Positions 5,051-15,277 of a DNA stretch of 64,000 nt are shown here, piece by piece; position 1 is the first letter of the stretch; each line of letters starts with the position of its first letter. The position numbers and the translations under genes were made by a program. The notes under the pieces are model-generated. The model ran no database searches, was not told the origin of the DNA, and saw only the letters and a program-made list of their open reading frames with translations. The stretch comes from an uncultured Holophaga sp. (GTDB lineage: Bacteria; Acidobacteriota; Holophagae; Holophagales; Holophagaceae). The stretch spans positions 1,280,001-1,344,000 of the forward strand of contig OY761614.1 of assembly GCA_963664825.1 (NCBI GenBank), given 5' to 3'.

Positions 5051-6958
5051 CTACAGCCCCTTCAGAACGGCCCTGGCGAAATCCGGCAGGGAGGGATCCC
5101 GGGCGCCCATGATGAGCACCAGGTCCCCTTCTTGAGCTTCCGAAACGAGGCGCTCCACCAGCCACTCCCGGGAGGGTGCGAATTCAGCCAGGGTGCCCTT
5201 TTCACCTATTTCGCACACGATCTCGGCAGACGAGAAATCCCGGTTCGCCGTCCCCCCCGCGTAGTAGATCTCCAGCATCCAGAGCCGGTCCTGGGGCCGC
5301 AATTCGGCCTGGAAGGTCGCCACGAAATCCGGACGCAGGAAGCGCATGGGGGCGTATCCATGGGGCTGGAAGACGGCCAGCACACGCTTGGCGCGCATCT
5401 GGGCGGTGCGGATTGAAGCGGCCACCTTGGCCGGATTGTGGCCGAAATCGTCCACCACCTGTACGCCCCCCTTCGTGCCCAGGACCTGAAACCGCCGCGC
5501 CACGCCTTGGAAGGCCGCCAGAGGAGCCACCATCTCCTGCAAGGGCACTCCCACCGCGGCGCAGGCGGCGAGCGCCGCCAGGGCGTTCTCCACATTGTGT
5601 CTGCCGGGCACGGGGAGACTGAAGGTGATGCCATTCACCCGGAAGGTCGAGCCCTCAGCCTCCAGGACCAGTTCCTCACCCCGCAGCCCCGCTTCCTTGC
5701 CGAATCCGAAGACCGTGGCCCCCGAGGCCAGCTCCGTCAGGTTCTCGGCCTCGCCCACCACGAAGGCCTCCTGGACGCGGCCCCGGAAGATGCGGAACAT
5801 CTCGGCCACCTCGGATTCGGCCTTGTGGTCCTTCTGGAGGTTCAAGACCACGCCCACGGCAGGTTTGTAGCGCACCACCGAACCATCGCTCTCATCGGCC
5901 TCGATGACCAGCAGATCGGAATCCCCCGCCCAGGCGTTGCCCCAGAGACCTTCCCCCTGAAGGGCCACCAGTTCGCCGCCGGTGATGATCGAAGGGCTGC
6001 GCCCTGCCCCCCGCAGGATTTCAAAGACAAGAGCCGCCGTCGTGGATTTGCCGCTGGTGCCCGTGATGGCCAAGGTGCGATGGGAGGCCACGAGATCGGC
6101 CAGCAGTTCGGAGCGGTGGATGAGCGGCACGCCCAGGCGCCGCGCTTCAGAGAAATCGGGCACTGTATCTTCCACCGCCGTGGAATAGACCACGCCGCTG
6201 CAATCCCCGGCCACGCCGCAGCCATCCTGGGGCAGGATAGAGATGCCCAATTGTGCCAGCCTCCCCCGGGCCGCCGCGTTCTGGCCTCGGTCGAAGGCGC
6301 GATCACTGCCGCTCACGGGCCTCCCCTTCATGGCCCAGAATTGCGCCAGGGCGCTCATGCCGCTGCCGCCCACTCCCGCGAAGTGGAGGCGGCCCGAACC
6401 TGACCCCTCGACCACCACCAGCGCATCACCTTCCCTGGCCAGCCCGAAGAGTTCCACCACATCGGCATTGGCCATGCGCAGGCAGCCGTGGGAGACGGCC
6501 TCCCCCAATCGGTGTTCCTGGTTGGTGCCGTGGATGTAGATGTAGCGCTCCAGCGTGTCGTGATCGGCACCCCGGTTGAGGCCTTCCTCCAGGCCCTCCA
6601 GCGTGAGGACCCGCGTGAGGATCAGGTCCTCCTCCCGGGTTTCGCCCTGCCAGATTTCCCCCGTAGCGATCTGGCTGCGGAAGATCATGCCGCCGGGAGC
6701 GCCCTCTCCAAGCTTGCGATGGATCCTGTGCCAGCCCAGAGGCGTCTGGTACGAGCCCTCCTGATAGCCGAGGCCATTCAGGGCCGTGGAGATGGGGTAG
6801 TCCCCGAGCAGCTCCCCGTGTTCCAGCAGGCCCATGCGCTGCCGCGCCACATCCACCACCAACAGGCGGTTCGGCAGGGCCCGGAAGGGACTTCCGGGTC
6901 TGGAGAGGGCGGCAAGCCCCAGAGATCGGTAGTGGGCGGCGAGAACGGGATTGGCCAT
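5051..6958 (-). CDS. Fusion of a YkuD (L,D-transpeptidase/carboxypeptidase) domain and a MurC/Mpl-like Mur ligase
   Basis: N-terminal TPLGWH...YIYIHGT...SHGCLRM; after linker GSGSG: HFAGVGGSGMSALA, GTSGKSTT, EADESDGS, PGRHNVEN, RRFQ, DDFGHNP, FQPHGY. Confidence 0.9.
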   Translation of the reverse strand: MANPVLAAHYRSLGLAALSRPGSPFRALPNRLLVVDVARQRMGLLEHGELLGDYPISTALNGLGYQEGSYQTPLGWHRIHRKLGEGAPGGMIFRSQIATGEIWQGETREEDLILTRVLTLEGLEEGLNRGADHDTLERYIYIHGTNQEHRLGEAVSHGCLRMANADVVELFGLAREGDALVVVEGSGSGRLHFAGVGGSGMSALAQFWAMKGRPVSGSDRAFDRGQNAAARGRLAQLGISILPQDGCGVAGDCSGVVYSTAVEDTVPDFSEARRLGVPLIHRSELLADLVASHRTLAITGTSGKSTTAALVFEILRGAGRSPSIITGGELVALQGEGLWGNAWAGDSDLLVIEADESDGSVVRYKPAVGVVLNLQKDHKAESEVAEMFRIFRGRVQEAFVVGEAENLTELASGATVFGFGKEAGLRGEELVLEAEGSTFRVNGITFSLPVPGRHNVENALAALAACAAVGVPLQEMVAPLAAFQGVARRFQVLGTKGGVQVVDDFGHNPAKVAASIRTAQMRAKRVLAVFQPHGYAPMRFLRPDFVATFQAELRPQDRLWMLEIYYAGGTANRDFSSAEIVCEIGEKGTLAEFAPSREWLVERLVSEAQEGDLVLIMGARDPSLPDFARAVLKGL

Positions 6959-7005
6959 GGGTAAGGGTACCGCGGGGAACCCCACCCGGGGACTGCCAGT
7001 GCGCG

Positions 7006-7941: not shown

Positions 7942-9573
7942 ATGCCCAACGCCATCTTCAATCTGCCGGATTCCTACAACGAACCCGTCCTCACGTACGC
8001 CCCCGGCAGCCCGGAACGTGTGCATCTGAAGGCCGAACTGGATCGCCAATACAATCTCGAAGTGGACATCCCACTCATCATCGGCGGCCAGGAAATCCGC
8101 ACGGGACGCCTCCGGGAGGTGGTCTGTCCCCACGAGCACGGCCACGTGCTGGCCCACTACCACGAGGCCGGAGAAGCCGAAATCCAGATGGCCATCGATG
8201 CCGCCCTCCAGGCCAAGAGCGATTGGGAGGCCATGCCCTGGGAGGACCGGGCCGCCATCTTCCAGCGAATGGCCAGCCTCATCTCCACGAAATACCGCTA
8301 CATCCTCAACGCCGCCACCATGCTCAACCAGTCCAAGAACGCCCACCAGGCGGAGGTCGATTCCACCTGCGAGACGGCGGACTTCTTCCGCTACAACGCC
8401 AAGTACATGGAGCAGATCTACCGGAACCAGCCCTTGTCGAACCCCAATATCTGGAACCGCATGCAGTACCGGGCCCTGGAAGGCTTCGTCTTCGCCGTCA
8501 CCCCCTTCAACTTCACCGCCATCGCCGCCAACCTAGCCACGGCACCGGCCATGATGGGCAATACCATCGTGTGGAAGCCCGCTTCCACAGCTATCCTCTC
8601 CAACTACTACCTGATGCAGCTCTACCGGGAAGCCGGTCTGCCGGATGGAGTCATCAACTTCGTGCCCTCTCGGGGTTCGGTCATCGGTCAGATCGTGATG
8701 GGCCACGAGAGCTTCGCGGGCCTTCACTTCACGGGGTCCACGGAGACCTTCCGCTCCATGTGGAAGACCGCCGGGGAAAACCTGGACCGCTACCGCACCT
8801 ATCCCCGCCTGGTGGGTGAGACCGGCGGCAAGGACTACATCTTCGTCCATAACAGTGCGGAACTCCCGGCGGCGGCCACGGCCATCGTGCGGGGTTCCTT
8901 CGAATACCAGGGGCAGAAGTGCTCGGCCTGCTCCCGGGTCTATGTGCCGGCCTCCACCTGGCCCGAGCTGAAGAGGCTCCTCCTGGAGCTCGTGGGCCAG
9001 ATCCAGATGGGCGACGTGCGGGACTTCCGCAATCTCATGAACGCCGTCATCGACGAGACGAGCTTCAATGCCACGATGGGCTACATCGAGAAGGCCCGGG
9101 CATCCGAAAAGGCCGAGATCATCGCCGGAGGCAAGGGCGACAAGTCCACGGGCTACTTCATCGAGCCCACGGTCATCGTCACCACCGATCCCCACTTCCT
9201 CACCATGGAGGAGGAGATCTTCGCCCCCGTGGTCACCATCTACGTCTATGACGACGGGAAGCTGGAAGAGACCCTCCAGACCCTGGATCAGACCTCGCCC
9301 TACGCCCTCACGGGCAGCATCTTCGCCCGGGACCGCCAGGTCATCAATCACCTGTCGGAGGTCCTGGCCAATACCGCCGGGAATTTCTACATCAACGACA
9401 AGTGCACCGGCGCCATGGTGGGCCACCAGCCCTTCGGAGGCGCCCGGGCCTCGGGCACCAACGACAAGGCGGGGAGTTTCCTGAACCTGGTGCGCTGGAC
9501 CTCCCCCCGGGCCATCATGGAAAACTTCGCGTCCCCCACGGGACTCGGATATCCCTCCATGGACGAGGCCTGA
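7942..9573 (+). CDS. pruA: 1-pyrroline-5-carboxylate (glutamate-semialdehyde) dehydrogenase
   Basis: NEPVLTYAPGSPER, PFNFTAI, FTGST, GETGGKD, FEYQGQKCSACSR, EEIFAP, QPFGGARASGTNDKAG. Confidence 0.95.
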   Translation: MPNAIFNLPDSYNEPVLTYAPGSPERVHLKAELDRQYNLEVDIPLIIGGQEIRTGRLREVVCPHEHGHVLAHYHEAGEAEIQMAIDAALQAKSDWEAMPWEDRAAIFQRMASLISTKYRYILNAATMLNQSKNAHQAEVDSTCETADFFRYNAKYMEQIYRNQPLSNPNIWNRMQYRALEGFVFAVTPFNFTAIAANLATAPAMMGNTIVWKPASTAILSNYYLMQLYREAGLPDGVINFVPSRGSVIGQIVMGHESFAGLHFTGSTETFRSMWKTAGENLDRYRTYPRLVGETGGKDYIFVHNSAELPAAATAIVRGSFEYQGQKCSACSRVYVPASTWPELKRLLLELVGQIQMGDVRDFRNLMNAVIDETSFNATMGYIEKARASEKAEIIAGGKGDKSTGYFIEPTVIVTTDPHFLTMEEEIFAPVVTIYVYDDGKLEETLQTLDQTSPYALTGSIFARDRQVINHLSEVLANTAGNFYINDKCTGAMVGHQPFGGARASGTNDKAGSFLNLVRWTSPRAIMENFASPTGLGYPSMDEA

Positions 9574-9696
9574 GCCACCTTTCGACCTGGGGGACGGCCT
9601 TCCCCTCTGACCTCCATCACGCTTTTTCCCACCTCGGGGCGCGCCTCCTTCACAATGAAGACTGGTGCGCCCCAAAGGGCGAAACAGGAGCCGGTG

Positions 9697-11538
9697 ATGT
9701 CCCACTGCGTGGTCGAGTGTGTCCCCAATTTCAGCGAAGGCCGCGATATGGCCAAGATGCGGCTCATCACGGGAGCCATTGAGACAGTGGCTGGCGTGAA
9801 GCTGCTGGACGTGGATCCCGGGGCCGACACCAACCGCACGGTGGTGACCTTCGTGGGGGACCCGGATTCGGTCGTGGAGGCCGCCTTCCGGGGCATCCAG
9901 AAGGCGCTCGAAGTCATCGATATGCGCGGCCATAGCGGCGCGCATCCCCGCATGGGCGCCTGCGACGTGTGCCCCTTCATCCCGGTGGAAGGCGTCTCCA
10001 TGGAAGACTGCGCGGGGCTCGCCCGGCGTCTGGGCGAGCGCGTGGGCCGGGAGTTGCAGCTGCCCGTCTACCTCTACGAACATGCCGCCAGCCGCCCGGA
10101 GCGCCAGAACCTGGCCGTGGTGCGCAAGGGCGAGTACGAGGGCCTGGAGGCCAAGCTCCAGGACCCGGACTGGGCGCCGGATTTCGGCCCGGCCACCTTC
10201 GTCCCCGAATTCGGCGCCCTCATCACAGGCGCCCGGGAATTCCTCATCGCCTACAACATCACCCTGAATAGCCGCGACAAGGCCCATGCCACCGATATCG
10301 CCTTCGATCTGCGGGAGAAGGGCCGGGTGGCCCGCCGGGGCCAGACCAGCGCCTTCTACAGCAGCGGCCGAGAACTGCGCTACGCGGAAGGCTGCTTCCC
10401 CTGCGGCAATTGCGAACTGGACTTCCCCACCTATGAGGCTCTGGAAGCCCATTGCCACACCGTCCACGGCTACGATCTGCGCCGCCTCCTCAAGCTCAAC
10501 GATATCGATGCGACGAGGCCCATCCTCGGCAAGAAGGCCTACAAGGCTGGACTCTTCACCGAATGCAAGGCCATCGGCTGGTACGTGGATACCTACAAGC
10601 GGGCCCAGCTCTCCATCAATCTCACCAACTACAAGGTGACGAGCCCCGTGGATGTGCTGGAGACTACGCGCCGCATGGCAGTGGCCCGGGGCCTGGTGGT
10701 GACCGGCAGCGAGATCGTGGGCCTAGTGCCCTTCAAGCCCCTCTTCGATGCGGGTCAGTTCTACCTGCGCCAGCAGGGCAAGTCCCCCTTCGTCCCCGTG
10801 GCCGATGTGCTGGAGAACGCCGTCTTCAGTATGGGGCTGGCCGATGTGGCTCCCTTTGAGATCGAGAAGAAGGTGCTGGGCCTGCCCAAGGTTTTTGAAA
10901 CCGGCCTCATGGCCATGAAGGTAACGGATTTCGTGACGGAGGTGAGTCGCGATACCCCCGCCCCCGGGGGCGGCAGCATCGCGGCCCTGGCCGGAGCCCT
11001 GGGCGCGAGCCTCGCCTCCATGGTGGCCAATCTCACCAAGGCCAAGAACGCCGAACATGGCGCCAGCCTCCTGGCCGCCGCCGACCAGGCCCACCGAGTG
11101 AAGGACGCGCTCGTCCTCGCGGTCGATGAGGACACCAACGCCTTCAACGCCTACATGGACGCCCGGAGACTGCCCCAGGGCAGCCCGGAGGAAAAGGCTC
11201 TGCGCGAGGCGGCCATGCTGGAGGGCCTGAAGATCGCCGTCAATGTGCCCTTCCAGACCGCCGCCCTCTGCCTGGAGGCCATGCAGGCCGCCGGCGCCGT
11301 CATTGAACAGGGCAACCCCGCCTCCATCACCGACGGCATGGTGGGCGTGCAGATGGGCTTCGCCGGTGTGCGGGGCGGCATCTGGAACGTGCTCATCAAC
11401 CTCAAGGATATCGACGACGCCGCCTACAATGCCGACATGAAGGCCCGCTGCGAGAAACTCCTGATGGAGGCCATCGGCCTCATGGATCGCGCCATCAGCG
11501 AAGGCGATGCCCGCCTGGGAGCCATGCTGGCGAAGTAG
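9697..11538 (+). CDS. ftcD: Glutamate formimidoyltransferase / formiminotetrahydrofolate cyclodeaminase (bifunctional), with an inserted C2H2 zinc finger
   Basis: VECVPNFSEGRD, HPRMGACDVCPF, TGAREFLIAYN, GSEIVGLVP; C-terminal PAPGGGSIAALAGALG and GNPASITD cyclodeaminase domain; AGGAG RBS. Confidence 0.95.
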   Translation: MSHCVVECVPNFSEGRDMAKMRLITGAIETVAGVKLLDVDPGADTNRTVVTFVGDPDSVVEAAFRGIQKALEVIDMRGHSGAHPRMGACDVCPFIPVEGVSMEDCAGLARRLGERVGRELQLPVYLYEHAASRPERQNLAVVRKGEYEGLEAKLQDPDWAPDFGPATFVPEFGALITGAREFLIAYNITLNSRDKAHATDIAFDLREKGRVARRGQTSAFYSSGRELRYAEGCFPCGNCELDFPTYEALEAHCHTVHGYDLRRLLKLNDIDATRPILGKKAYKAGLFTECKAIGWYVDTYKRAQLSINLTNYKVTSPVDVLETTRRMAVARGLVVTGSEIVGLVPFKPLFDAGQFYLRQQGKSPFVPVADVLENAVFSMGLADVAPFEIEKKVLGLPKVFETGLMAMKVTDFVTEVSRDTPAPGGGSIAALAGALGASLASMVANLTKAKNAEHGASLLAAADQAHRVKDALVLAVDEDTNAFNAYMDARRLPQGSPEEKALREAAMLEGLKIAVNVPFQTAALCLEAMQAAGAVIEQGNPASITDGMVGVQMGFAGVRGGIWNVLINLKDIDDAAYNADMKARCEKLLMEAIGLMDRAISEGDARLGAMLAK

Positions 11539-12097: not shown

Positions 12098-12742
12098 CTA
12101 CTGCAGTTTGAGGGTTCCCACCTTAAAAGTCACATCCTCCGTCTTGCGCTTGAGGATTGTGCCGATGCTCTTGGGAATGACCCGTGCCTTGATAACAGTC
12201 AAGGGCACGTCTCCTGGCGAGGCATTGAGGCTGGCATCGAAATCGAGGGCCACCTGGAGGACGACGCCGCTGCAGTCCTTGGCCGTGGCACCCTGTTCAG
12301 GCCCGTACAGCTCTTCATCTGTCTTCTGGAAGATTCCCACCATCAGCTTGCCGTTGGAGACCCCTCCCGCCTGCAAATTGGTAGGGATCTCCTTGTGGTC
12401 GGAGGTGAAGGGCTCTTTGTCCAGAAAGACACCGCCGTCCTTGTAGTAGCCCCCCGGCTTTCCCTGGGGATCCGGGAGGCGGGCGAACTTCACCAGGGCG
12501 GGATCCGCCTGGAGCGTGAACCCAATGCCTCGATACGTGCTGCCATCCGATGGACCCACCAAGTTCAATACGAGGTGCGTGTCGGTGCTGGCGGCGTCCT
12601 TGAGTAGCTTCCACTCCCCCGCAGCGGCGGTGGGATCTGTGTAGGAGAGGCTCTTGGCCGGGGCGAGGTGGTGATCACTGCCGCCACACCCCATGAGAAG
12701 AGAAAGGGCCAGAGGAACAACAATGGAATACAGCGTTTTCAT
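12098..12742 (-). CDS. Lipoprotein, possible cohesin-like beta-sandwich
   Basis: Lipobox LLMG-C19; beta-rich; starts 9 bp downstream of the M4 peptidase stop. Confidence 0.75.
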   Translation of the reverse strand: MKTLYSIVVPLALSLLMGCGGSDHHLAPAKSLSYTDPTAAAGEWKLLKDAASTDTHLVLNLVGPSDGSTYRGIGFTLQADPALVKFARLPDPQGKPGGYYKDGGVFLDKEPFTSDHKEIPTNLQAGGVSNGKLMVGIFQKTDEELYGPEQGATAKDCSGVVLQVALDFDASLNASPGDVPLTVIKARVIPKSIGTILKRKTEDVTFKVGTLKLQ

Positions 12743-12751
12743 ATATAAACC

Positions 12752-15121
12752 TCAGTGATTGAATGCGTTGTTGAAGCCTTCGAGAAAGAGTTCGAGACAG
12801 ACGTCATCCACCCCAGCGATGCTGTCGTAAAGCTTGGCGGCGGGATAGACGTCGATGCCGTTGTACGCAAGCGCCAAAGCACCCATGTCGCAGGCGTCCG
12901 TATCGGTGTCGCTGTCGCAATCCAGGCTGACCCCGAAGACCATGTTCACGGCATATGCCCTGGGATCCTGCTTGCTGATGGCCTTGACGGGCCAGTAGGC
13001 GCCGTTGGAGGCCACGGGGGCTATGAAATTGCCGTCCACAAACTTGCCGCCCTCTGGATAGCGAGCGGACAGACCGCCCAGATCCCAGGTGACCTCAGTA
13101 TTTTTCGCATTGGCCACCGTGGGTGGGGGCAGGGGCGTCGGCACCAGGGCGGGGGCTACGACAATGTTTGGATTGCGGAACGGCGAATTGGCAACGGCCT
13201 TGAAGGTCACGAGAACGGGATCCTGTCCCACTTCAGCCCGCCCCACATTGATGGCGGCGAAGGCGTTCTTTACTGCGGCCACCTCGGGGGAGTCTGCGGC
13301 TCCCGTCGGTGGGTGGAGTTCGGTTGCCGCAGCCAGGACGGCTTCCCGGATCGCGTGATAGTCCGCCGAGGAATCGGTCACCGTGCTCATGGCCCGGTAC
13401 CAGATGCGTATGGCATTATCGTTGCCGATGCCCGTCATCCCTGCGGGCAGATAGGATGAGTAGGTTTCCTTGGTCGGGTCGCTGGCGGCCCCTTGACTCA
13501 GGAAATAGAAGGCCCGGTTCGCGGGACCGTTGCTGTAGTGGCAATCCTCCATCCCCATCCCGTCAAACCAATGATCGAAGCTGAGCCCATCTTTGCTGGG
13601 CTTGTAGAGCCAGCGCGTGGGAGTGAGTCCGTCCTTGGAAAGCTGGGATCCCAGGGTCCAGAGGTAATCCGCCCTGTTGTGGCCGCCGGGTGCCTTGGTG
13701 GTGGCATCGGGAACGATCGGGCCGGTGCCATCGGCACCCCAGACGTAGTACTTAACCATGGTGGCATGGATGTCCGAATTGCCTTCATTGAGCCCTTGGC
13801 TCTCGCCGCCGCTCAGATTGGCCGTGAAGGTCATGACGCCGTGGCTCATCTCGTGAGCGGCCACGTCGAGGCAGGTGAGCGATCCCGTCGGGGCCCCGTC
13901 TCCGTAGTGCATGACGAACAGGGATGGAATCCATGCCGCGTTATTCAAAACCCGACCTGCCCCCATACCGTCATCCATGTGCACGATACTCACGGGCGAA
14001 GTCCCCTGGCCATCGATGCCGCCATCGCGTCCCAGGACGTTCTTGTAATAGTCCCACGTCATCTGGAGGGCATAGTGGGCGTCCACGGCAGCCGTTTGGC
14101 CGTGAGCATCGTATAGCCGGTCGGGCCATTCATTCTCCCAGTCGAATGGCTGCCCATCGCCCCAGGTGTTGCTGGCGTTGGTGAAGGGCATGGTCCCGCT
14201 ATTGTTTGTCGAGTTATAGTTATCGTAACAGACGGTCTGGAAGCCAATTCCTCCATACTCCGGGAGCGGCAGGCCCTCGGGTGGAGCGATGGACCAAGGA
14301 TGGGGCTTGGTGGCCCGGGTCGTATCGCGGAGGATGAACTGGTTAGAACTGTCCGTCAACTGCACGGTGTTGAGACTCACAGTGCCGTTGTACTGGCTGG
14401 TCCCCGTTCCCACGGCCGGCGTATCCGCGTAATGCACCCCGTCCCACTTCTTCAAGATCTCGCCTGTTTGTCCATCGATGATGAACTCAGTAACTGCAAA
14501 ACCATGTGTTTTTGCCTGTATGGCGCTGATCTGGAAGGCCCAGCGATAGGGATCCGTCTTCTTCGACGTGCCCACGCTGTAGACCGGATCGACCACGAAG
14601 CGCCCGCTGGCGTCGCGCTTCATCTTGATGCCATCCTGGTACTTGGTGGGGAACACCAGGCGCTTGACCTGCAGGGGCCAGAGCTTGCCTTCCTGGGGGA
14701 GGTTCCTGGTGACGATCTCCCGAATCTTGGATTCGTCAAGCAGGGCAACGGAATCGAGACTGATGTCTTTCTGAACGGTGGCGTGGGGGGGCAGCATGCG
14801 ACCCGTCGCGTCCATGTGACCGAGCACGATGCCGTTGTAGACTTCCACTCCACGAAAGGTCTGGTGGCAGCGGACGTGAGTCTGACCAAAGGCATCCGTG
14901 ACCTGGTTGAACGCCTGAAGGCCATCCAGCATTCCAAGCCCCAGGGTGGTTTTGTCTCCTTCCAGGCTGCGGGTGAGTTGAGCCACGCGCTGTGACTGCT
15001 GGCCCCGGATGAATGCGAGCATGTCGTGGGGGAGGGGCCGCAGGCCCTCGCCCGCTGACAGCAGGCCGGTCACTGTTAGCAGTGCCAACAGCGTGAGATG
15101 TGGACGGACGCGACGTGCCAT
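12752..15121 (-). CDS. Secreted M4 (thermolysin-family) metallopeptidase with C-terminal Ig-like and dockerin-like regions
   Basis: Signal peptide; FTP propeptide (DAFGQTHVRCHQTFRGVEV); AAVDAHY, NNAAW, AHEMSHGV, GLNEGNSD; RBS AAGGAG. Confidence 0.93.
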   Translation of the reverse strand: MARRVRPHLTLLALLTVTGLLSAGEGLRPLPHDMLAFIRGQQSQRVAQLTRSLEGDKTTLGLGMLDGLQAFNQVTDAFGQTHVRCHQTFRGVEVYNGIVLGHMDATGRMLPPHATVQKDISLDSVALLDESKIREIVTRNLPQEGKLWPLQVKRLVFPTKYQDGIKMKRDASGRFVVDPVYSVGTSKKTDPYRWAFQISAIQAKTHGFAVTEFIIDGQTGEILKKWDGVHYADTPAVGTGTSQYNGTVSLNTVQLTDSSNQFILRDTTRATKPHPWSIAPPEGLPLPEYGGIGFQTVCYDNYNSTNNSGTMPFTNASNTWGDGQPFDWENEWPDRLYDAHGQTAAVDAHYALQMTWDYYKNVLGRDGGIDGQGTSPVSIVHMDDGMGAGRVLNNAAWIPSLFVMHYGDGAPTGSLTCLDVAAHEMSHGVMTFTANLSGGESQGLNEGNSDIHATMVKYYVWGADGTGPIVPDATTKAPGGHNRADYLWTLGSQLSKDGLTPTRWLYKPSKDGLSFDHWFDGMGMEDCHYSNGPANRAFYFLSQGAASDPTKETYSSYLPAGMTGIGNDNAIRIWYRAMSTVTDSSADYHAIREAVLAAATELHPPTGAADSPEVAAVKNAFAAINVGRAEVGQDPVLVTFKAVANSPFRNPNIVVAPALVPTPLPPPTVANAKNTEVTWDLGGLSARYPEGGKFVDGNFIAPVASNGAYWPVKAISKQDPRAYAVNMVFGVSLDCDSDTDTDACDMGALALAYNGIDVYPAAKLYDSIAGVDDVCLELFLEGFNNAFNH

Positions 15122-15277
15122 GAGGACTCCTTGAAACGGGGAACCCATCCGGAGCCGGAGGACCAGCCCACGGATGGGATACCATACGGAAAGACCTTGC
15201 GGTCTCAGTGACGAATCTCGGCAGAGGCAAAACGGATGGGGATTCACTGACCTTGGTGAACATTAACAAGAGCGGGT

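Follow-up and report, generated by a model that had tools for sequence, protein, structure and literature searches.

An uncultured Holophaga sp. encodes an enzyme of histidine degradation whose formiminotransferase domain is interrupted by a segment resembling a classical Cys2His2 (C2H2) zinc finger, and the locus raises the question of whether this segment is a finger of that type and what it would do for the enzyme. The gene in question, ftcD, lies in a window of 64,000 nucleotides (the whole stretch of DNA analysed; contig OY761614.1 of assembly GCA_963664825.1, positions 1,280,001 to 1,344,000 of the forward strand). Judged by its spacing, its conservation and its predicted fold, the insert is very probably a classical-type C2H2 finger that would bind zinc. 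Such fingers are seen as almost exclusively eukaryotic (PMC3541406). The first-pass annotation of this DNA had placed a finger-bearing insertion at 10339-10548; the insertion is real and its end stands, but its start lies at 10330, three codons earlier. The finger peptide and the residue numbering F234-H257 given there fit the 613-residue frame that starts at 9697. The gene and its parts, including this insertion, are the following:

9697-11538, plus strand: ftcD, fused glutamate formimidoyltransferase / formimidoyl-tetrahydrofolate cyclodeaminase, 613 amino acids plus stop
9709-10236, plus strand: formiminotransferase N-terminal subdomain (residues 5-180, Pfam FTCD_N), containing H83
10240-10878, plus strand: formiminotransferase C-terminal subdomain (residues 182-394, Pfam FTCD), split by the insertion
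10330-10548, plus strand: full insertion relative to mammalian FTCD, 73 residues (212-284), from the unaligned segment and the secondary structure predicted by AlphaFold2 (AF2)
10369-10524, plus strand: 52-residue cassette (residues 225-276) at a beta-hairpin turn, which separates "long" from "short" bacterial FtcDs
10396-10467, plus strand: finger proper, F234-H257, peptide FPCGNCELDFPTYEALEAHCHTVH, with C236, C239, H252 and H257 as putative ligands
10402-10404, 10411-10413, 10450-10452 and 10465-10467, plus strand: codons of C236, C239, H252 and H257, by direct reading
10477-10497, plus strand: second short helix (residues 261-267, AF2), after the conserved H-G-[YG]-D-L
10921-11457, plus strand: cyclodeaminase domain (residues 409-587, Pfam FTCD_C and alignment to 1tt9)

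The finger of the window protein has the spacing C236-x2-C239-x12-H252-x4-H257, which is that of the classical C-x2-4-C-x12-H-x3-5-H pattern. A word-based search with residues 195-300 considered 867 candidates, of which 778 scored E ≤ 0.001; the best 120 of these were all FtcD-like, with 70-86% identity over these residues, and a precomputed zinc-finger Pfam domain was found in none of these 120 close homologues. By scanning one genome per species and aligning over the full length, we confirmed 595 FtcD relatives and kept the best 80, a set biased towards relatives of the query. At the insertion site 35 of the 80 loci are long (72-74 residues) and 42 are short (12-28 residues), and 3 are cut off before the site. 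The first-pass annotation had left it to an alignment of homologues to decide whether the ligands are conserved; all four (C, C, H, H) are kept in 31 of the 35 long-form loci, which belong to other species. Counted over 36 inserts, C236 is retained in 34, C239 in 32, H252 in 34 and H257 in 34. Conservation extends to about 12 cassette positions across phyla, non-ligand residues included, among them P235 (34/36), G237 (34/36), D260 (31/36) and L261 (31/36).

The consensus of the family finger reads [YF]-P-C-G-x-C-D-F-[VI]-G-x-[TS]-[FIW]-x-E-[LT]-x-x-H-[CY]-x-x-x-H-G-[YG]-D-L. The Cys1-2 position is Y or F in 33 of the 36 inserts, and the His1-3 position holds L in 20 of them, T in 14. The classical aromatic at Cys2+4 (residue 243 here) is absent from most of the family, where this position holds G (26/36) or A (7/36); an aromatic stands at Cys2+2 instead, as F in 26 of the inserts. 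Phe at the classical Cys2+4 position was seen only in the window protein and in one other insert, and it is this residue that gives the window finger its textbook look. An exact match including the hydrophobic core, as claimed at first pass, is thus correct for this protein and does not extend to the family. Three additional ligands had also been suggested; C233 and H254 are not conserved, and position 253 is Cys in 18 and Tyr in 12 of the 36 inserts.

Structure prediction agrees with a finger. An AF2 run of the whole protein, made with an 82-row alignment, reached a mean predicted local distance difference test (pLDDT) score of 94.7 and a predicted template modelling (pTM) score of 0.88, with the blocks of the insertion at 93-98. 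Short strands are predicted in both arms, followed between them by strands 233-235 and 242-243, helix 246-257, which holds both His ligands, and helix 261-267. The hairpin and first helix make up the beta-beta-alpha arrangement that the first-pass annotation had named as the fold to look for, and a 92-residue segment folded alone gave the same elements at a pLDDT of 79. In a Foldseek comparison with the PDB almost all of the best rows were classical C2H2 fingers, with local superpositions of 0.5 Å over 26 columns (Kaiso), 0.8 Å over 27 (CTCF) and 1.3 Å over 27 (ZFY). A profile built from the 36 inserts matched 36 PDB chains at E ≤ 1, nearly all of them C2H2 fingers, the best being MP42 (2e-5), ZNF462 (0.0016), CTCF (0.0024) and ADR1 (0.0042).

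The 92-residue segment was also compared by phmmer with 1.84 billion representative proteins of all lengths. The 39 matches at E ≤ 0.001 were pieces of FtcD and multi-finger proteins (P0128, for example, with 12 matched stretches at E 4e-14), and no free-standing relative of the cassette was present in this set. When 10 matched clusters were looked up, 3 were named; 2 name an organism, in both cases an animal, and one is called "C2H2-type domain-containing". A search of the ESM Atlas for a free-standing relative returned FtcD clusters only, at 0.80 and 0.76, under the counting level.

The extent of the insertion depends on the protein with which it is compared. Against rat FTCD (1tt9) and pig formiminotransferase (FT; 1qd1), phmmer aligned residues 5-211 and 285-592 and left 212-284 unmatched, in keeping with the earlier remark that this loop is shorter in FTCD proteins. 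Positions 1-143 of the 145-position Pfam FTCD profile are stretched over 213 residues (182-394), and the alignment of the NCBIfam model TIGR02024 is broken into two stretches. The inserted elements follow one another as a basic beta arm, the finger, the second helix and a returning arm. Short bacterial FtcDs have at this site a hairpin of the form "...G-x-I-V-R-D-E-x-G-x-x-V-x-x-P-G-x-F-K...", and the 80-locus alignment places in the long forms both arms of this hairpin with 52 additional residues at the turn. Set against the short bacterial enzymes, what is added is one discrete cassette of finger and second helix, sitting on the tip of a beta-hairpin.

Apart from the insert the enzyme is an ordinary FtcD with ordinary enzymology. 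All three Pfam domains passed their cut-offs (PF07837 FTCD_N, 245 bits against 27; PF02971 FTCD, 140 against 24; PF04961 FTCD_C, 186 against 24.5), TIGR02024, the FtcD equivalog, scored 344 bits against a cut-off of 221, and rat FTCD (1tt9) matched at E 3.5e-118 by phmmer. Residue H83 is invariant across 82 aligned FtcD sequences, and is the counterpart of His82 of the pig enzyme, named as the proposed catalytic residue in a section of PMC12622545. The 3.47-Mb genome has a single gene with an FTCD domain, the one in the window. Since urocanase (hutU), imidazolonepropionase (hutI) and histidine ammonia-lyase (hutH) all have matches above cut-off in the same genome, the histidine utilization (Hut) pathway is complete, and the ftcD product would be a working FtcD acting as its final enzyme. 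Translation from ATG 9697 gives 613 residues, the length also found in the closest relatives (86% identity over residues 195-300); an alternative in-frame ATG lies further 5' at 9655, the frame being open over 9655-11538 of the plus strand. Frames overlapping the site (8533-10467 on the minus strand and two alternative plus-strand frames) were considered as real genes and rejected, with no Pfam match at E ≤ 0.01; they are most likely empty ORFs (open reading frames) of the kind common in GC-rich DNA.

The cassette is widespread. The 35 long loci carry the labels of 10 phyla, nine bacterial and one archaeal lineage: Acidobacteriota (Holophagaceae, Thermoanaerobaculia), Gemmatimonadota, Myxococcota, Calditrichota, Ignavibacteriota, Planctomycetota, Pseudomonadota, Fidelibacterota (Neomarinimicrobiota), WOR-3 and one marine group III archaeon. 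These are metagenome-bin labels, some of which may be wrong, and one locus (L036) is labelled only "bacterium". In a sample of genomes from the window's own phylum, the FTCD domain was found in 379 of 401 and the 52-residue cassette in 71 of 401, the matches to the cassette always lying within ORFs of FtcD size where these were listed; without two unpublished genomes (G024, G049) the tallies are 377/399 and 71/399. Of 30 genomes in the family to which the window belongs, 28 have the cassette and 28 the FTCD domain. The two genomes of this family without either, G329 and G395 of genus g8 (1.1-1.2 Mb, 94-96% complete), appear to be reduced. Several genomes of the phylum (G172, G037, G053 and others, including the one of the window's own genus) have 2-3 FTCD-domain matches and one cassette match, and may hold long and short FtcD paralogues together. 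The spread over many phyla, together with a GC content at third codon positions of 0.82 in the insertion and 0.87 in the remainder of the gene, bears out the first-pass view that the insertion is old.

A maximum-likelihood tree of 75 rows, computed from the alignment without the insert columns (LG+G4, quick search), joined 35 of the 36 long rows in one clade (SH-aLRT, the Shimodaira-Hasegawa-like approximate likelihood ratio test, 99). Four long-form loci with incomplete ligand sets are nested within ligand-bearing clades and therefore represent secondary losses of ligands. One of them, L075 (positions 2095-2367), comes from a marine group III euryarchaeote and is nested inside Gemmatimonadota; with D, S, Y and Y at the ligand positions, it looks like a transferred gene that afterwards lost its metal site. 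The FtcDs of a Burkholderiales bin (L002) and an Enterobacteriaceae bin (L054) fall inside the Holophagaceae group, at 71% and 64% identity to the window protein, respectively, either by mis-binning or by recent transfer.

The long row outside the clade is L012 (positions 2098-2373), from a Neomarinimicrobiota metagenome-assembled genome, which carries the cassette and groups with two short-form Neomarinimicrobiota (support 100). These nearest relatives, L037 and L059, have no cassette, yet they share the same extended N-arm. Forcing all long rows together cost 126.6 log-likelihood units (approximately unbiased test, p-AU 0.0001), the constrained group having been chosen after inspection of the tree. 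The position of L012 reflects either transfer of the cassette between ftcD genes or a clean deletion, and it implies that the whole cassette entered or left this one hairpin turn on at least two occasions. The event is old, because no other cassette exceeds 39% identity to that of L012. Outside the insert, six positions (321, 346, 395-397 and 418) split long from short FtcDs. They were considered as changes compensating for the finger and rejected as such, since L012 shows the short-type state at all six; the positions mark the clade. It follows that the cassette needed no compensating changes, nor a matching surface, on the body of the enzyme.

What such a cassette would do can be approached from its surface. 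Net charge of the finger averages -2.4 over 36 sequences and ranges from -6 to +1, with 30 sequences acidic, 5 neutral and one at +1; for the 40-residue module the mean is -4.0. Steady length and the conserved P235, G237, D260 and L261 suggest selection, and a module projecting into the solvent, as it would from the tip of a hairpin, fits the evidence from L012. We propose that a surface beta-hairpin of the formiminotransferase C-terminal subdomain bears the 52-residue cassette at its tip, where a beta-beta-alpha finger would bind one structural Zn(II) through C236, C239, H252 and H257 and be followed by a short helix. Zinc at this site would stabilise the shape of a small module, unstable without it, on an arm that protrudes, and the acidic module could serve as a protein-contact surface towards another protein or towards an adjacent subunit or domain within the FtcD oligomer. 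As a whole, a structural zinc module on an exposed, protruding hairpin that acts as a contact surface is the probable explanation of these data; the contact role taken by itself is put forward tentatively.

One candidate contact was modelled. The FT-FT interface was predicted as a complex of two copies of residues 1-400 with our own alignment, and the dimer reached an ipSAE (interface score) of 0.70 (runs of 0.70, 0.74 and 0.69) against 0.00 for the best control, with contact agreement of at least 96% and partner pLDDT of at least 92. The mark used was reached by 20 of 30 solved one-chain pairs and by 1 of 23 single chains, counts that apply only roughly here because the prediction used our own alignment, and the pass may be memory because FT dimers have already been solved (1qd1, 1tt9). 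The predicted interface comprises residues 191-192, 194, 197, 218, 301-302, 332-334, 336, 356, 359-362, 373-374, 377-378, 380 and 383. Residue 218 is the only one of the insertion to be named there, and as unnamed residues are uncertain, nothing firm follows for the finger.

Several results weigh against the finger and against the role proposed for it. The motif on its own is not beyond chance: a loose, PROSITE-like C2H2 expression matched 3 times among the 16,058 genome ORFs of at least 100 amino acids and 2.95 ± 1.8 times in 20 residue shuffles of them, so that the case rests on conservation among relatives; a stricter expression with hydrophobic positions gave one match in the genome, the window site, and 0 in the 20 shuffles. 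The finger aligned over the full 24 positions of Pfam zf-C2H2_4 at 16.1-18.0 bits (E 0.005-0.02), missing the cut-off of 27, and PF00096 was not reported in the Pfam scan of the window FtcD. AF2 may have learned to render every C-x2-C-x12-H-x4-H sequence as a finger, and its prediction is thus not independent of the motif. Foldseek gave no PDB row at E ≤ 0.001 (best 0.55), as expected for a finger of only about 27 residues, and of 48,161 chains compared by VIA-align just 6 reached Z ≥ 2 and none went beyond 2.3, in rows that include Kaiso, the archaeal-virus finger AFV1p06, Ros and EEA1.

Further points of this kind concern ligands and function. Four long-form loci have incomplete ligand sets (L042, S,T,H,H; L044, C,G,H,H; L057, C,D,Y,Y; L075, D,S,Y,Y), two more representatives (P0146 and P0156) have no ligands, and the persistence of ligand-poor cassettes means that zinc is not indispensable for the role of the cassette. 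No recurring neighbour was found by Pfam in 64 frames, taken as the largest ORF in each 1.5-kb flank of the long-form loci, whose families are heterogeneous and include one urocanase (L003); the scan covered these frames and left aside 83 others, from short-form loci and from two truncated loci of undetermined form. We found no contact partner for the cassette and, in the literature, no metal, oligomer-state or activity measurement for any long-form FtcD.

A bolder reading goes beyond the structural zinc module: the 52-residue piece would be a portable cassette long kept by bacteria, a true classical beta-beta-alpha Cys2His2 finger that moved between ftcD genes, is present today in two FtcD backbones unrelated to each other, was also transferred to a marine group III archaeon and docks the last step of the Hut pathway to a partner or higher-order assembly. 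Taken together, we hold this sequence of events to be unlikely.

The insert may instead be a neutral decoration, stable and harmless, inherited with the gene and without a function of its own. Such an account would explain why no partner or function was found, why ligands decayed in some lineages and why short forms are the majority in the sample of the phylum. The length fixed at 72-74 residues in all 35 long loci, the dozen or so positions conserved across phyla and the match between cassette and FTCD counts in the window's family argue for purifying selection, and neutrality is unlikely.

The first-pass annotation had also raised nucleic-acid binding. PutA, of proline metabolism, offers a parallel for an enzyme that is also a regulator, and DNA binding by a single finger with basic flanks has precedents in Ros/MucR and GAGA. 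A moonlighting FtcD would use the finger and the preceding basic arm (mean charge +4 over residues 203-230) to regulate hut or folate genes; its oligomer would display several fingers, and the PDB profile matches include DNA-binding ones. The finger is acidic, however, and its helix carries T/S, E/Q/D and E/A at -1, +2 and +3, where bases are usually contacted, which argues against such binding. The basic stretch, with R206, G209 and R210 invariant or nearly so, is kept in short forms too and so belongs to the enzyme, not to the cassette. The finger is unlikely to read nucleic acid, and the moonlighting account as a whole is improbable.

Cys2His2 sites can undergo oxidation, and a zinc or redox switch, in which zinc occupancy or Cys oxidation tunes activity or stability, was likewise among the first-pass suggestions. 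In the window protein C233 and C253 adjoin the ligands, and the latter is Cys in half of the inserts. The lack of any conserved extra Cys (C233 varies and position 253 is often Tyr) and the persistence of lineages that retain the cassette without a full ligand set, four of them among the long-form loci, argue against it. By our own rough estimate, moreover, the insertion starts about 15 residues, or one helix, past the stretch matching a region of plant GFT that shapes the folate pocket according to part of PMC12622545. A switch is accordingly quite improbable. That the Cys and His form no metal site and recur by chance, as the shuffle-level count and the sub-threshold Pfam score would allow, is very improbable, given that 31 of 35 loci, spread over many phyla, keep all four positions, that in two lineages both His became Tyr and the second or both Cys are gone too, and that the insert-profile matches are to C2H2 fingers.

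Comparison with known systems places the window protein on familiar ground on the enzyme side. Mammalian FTCD (rat 1tt9, pig FT 1qd1) has the same layout of FT N- and C-subdomains and cyclodeaminase, aligns from end to end and has the catalytic His, but about 4 unaligned residues stand between "LREQGR" and "AIGWY" where the window protein has 73, and no metal site is annotated at this loop, judged by the names of the molecules returned. Short bacterial FtcDs (Aminicenantes, Cloacimonadota, Bacteroidota; L010-L080) are the same fused enzyme at 44-50% identity and share the "REKGRxxR" basic stretch and the hairpin with the long form; with 12-28 residues at the site in place of 72-74, they have neither finger nor second helix.

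On the finger side, the nearest counterparts of the insert are classical eukaryotic C2H2 fingers, those of the protein- or RNA-contact types ahead of DNA readers. Kaiso, CTCF, ADR1 and ZFY share with it C-x2-C-x12-H-x4-H, the aromatic at Cys1-2 and the beta-beta-alpha fold predicted here, and classical eukaryotic fingers superpose on the predicted window finger at 0.5-1.5 Å over 26-29 columns. Unlike them, the FtcD finger is single, lies inside an enzyme domain, is acidic and scores below the Pfam cut-off, and its family has the aromatic moved to Cys2+2 and Gly at Cys2+4. Fingers of PRMT3 (1wir), EEA1 (3mjh), the RNA-editing protein MP42 (9dei) and REI1, which serve protein or RNA contacts, were among the best profile or Foldseek rows for the insert, with weak scores. 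PRMT3 is, like the window FtcD, an enzyme with one C2H2 finger; all four are eukaryotic terminal domains, whereas the FtcD finger is an insertion within a catalytic domain.

Ros/MucR, the bacterial example usually discussed, has a different fold. Ros is a basic DNA-binding regulator with a shorter Cys-His spacer and a larger fold. Like the FtcD finger, this "prokaryotic Cys2His2" type (2jsp) is bacterial and single, with Cys2His2 ligands, but the two appear to differ in spacing, charge and predicted fold. The adenylate kinase LID is another small structural metal site that protrudes from an enzyme, a Cys4 knuckle whose ligands are replaced in some lineages; with its different fold and enzyme it is an analogy only. 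The character of Ros/MucR as a prokaryotic zinc-finger regulator is treated in a portion of PMC9779718. The structural match of the insert to Ros by VIA-align was weak (Z 2.1, root-mean-square deviation 4.7 Å over 57 residues).

Other genes of the window lie around ftcD. An aldehyde dehydrogenase family gene at 7942-9573 (plus strand, 543 amino acids, Pfam Aldedh 351 bits) ends 123 bases 5' of ftcD on the same strand. Our guess is that it encodes a 1-pyrroline-5-carboxylate dehydrogenase, in which case both genes would yield glutamate; the pairing was not seen in the other long-form loci examined. At 5051-6985 (minus strand) a 644-residue ORF has a YkuD L,D-transpeptidase domain (residues 40-191) fused to a complete Mur ligase (200-629), an unusual combination of two cell-wall enzymes. 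Positions 12098-15247 (minus strand) encode a thermolysin-type M4 peptidase of 831 amino acids and then a protein of 214 amino acids that Pfam did not match and whose N-terminus, which ends in Cys, is lipoprotein-like.

In the literature on formiminotransferase and FtcD, going by titles and abstract openings, we found no description of a finger in this enzyme. Current names and Pfam domain lists of these FtcDs omit the module, and the present results amount to a correction of that annotation. Classical spacing and a predicted classical fold are conserved here in a housekeeping catabolic enzyme of, going by the labels, nine or more bacterial phyla as well as one lineage of archaea. Natural versions of a single enzyme that bear the finger, lack it or have lost its ligands would offer a clean system for the contribution of a single finger. 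For folate enzymology the module may stay a curiosity until a function is found; for work on the origin of zinc fingers it would come as a surprise, and the FtcD finger is a data point on the origin of the C2H2 fold. Should the reading as a portable cassette prove true, this would be a bacterial lineage of a "eukaryotic" fold that is independent of Ros/MucR, with a bearing on where the fold arose.

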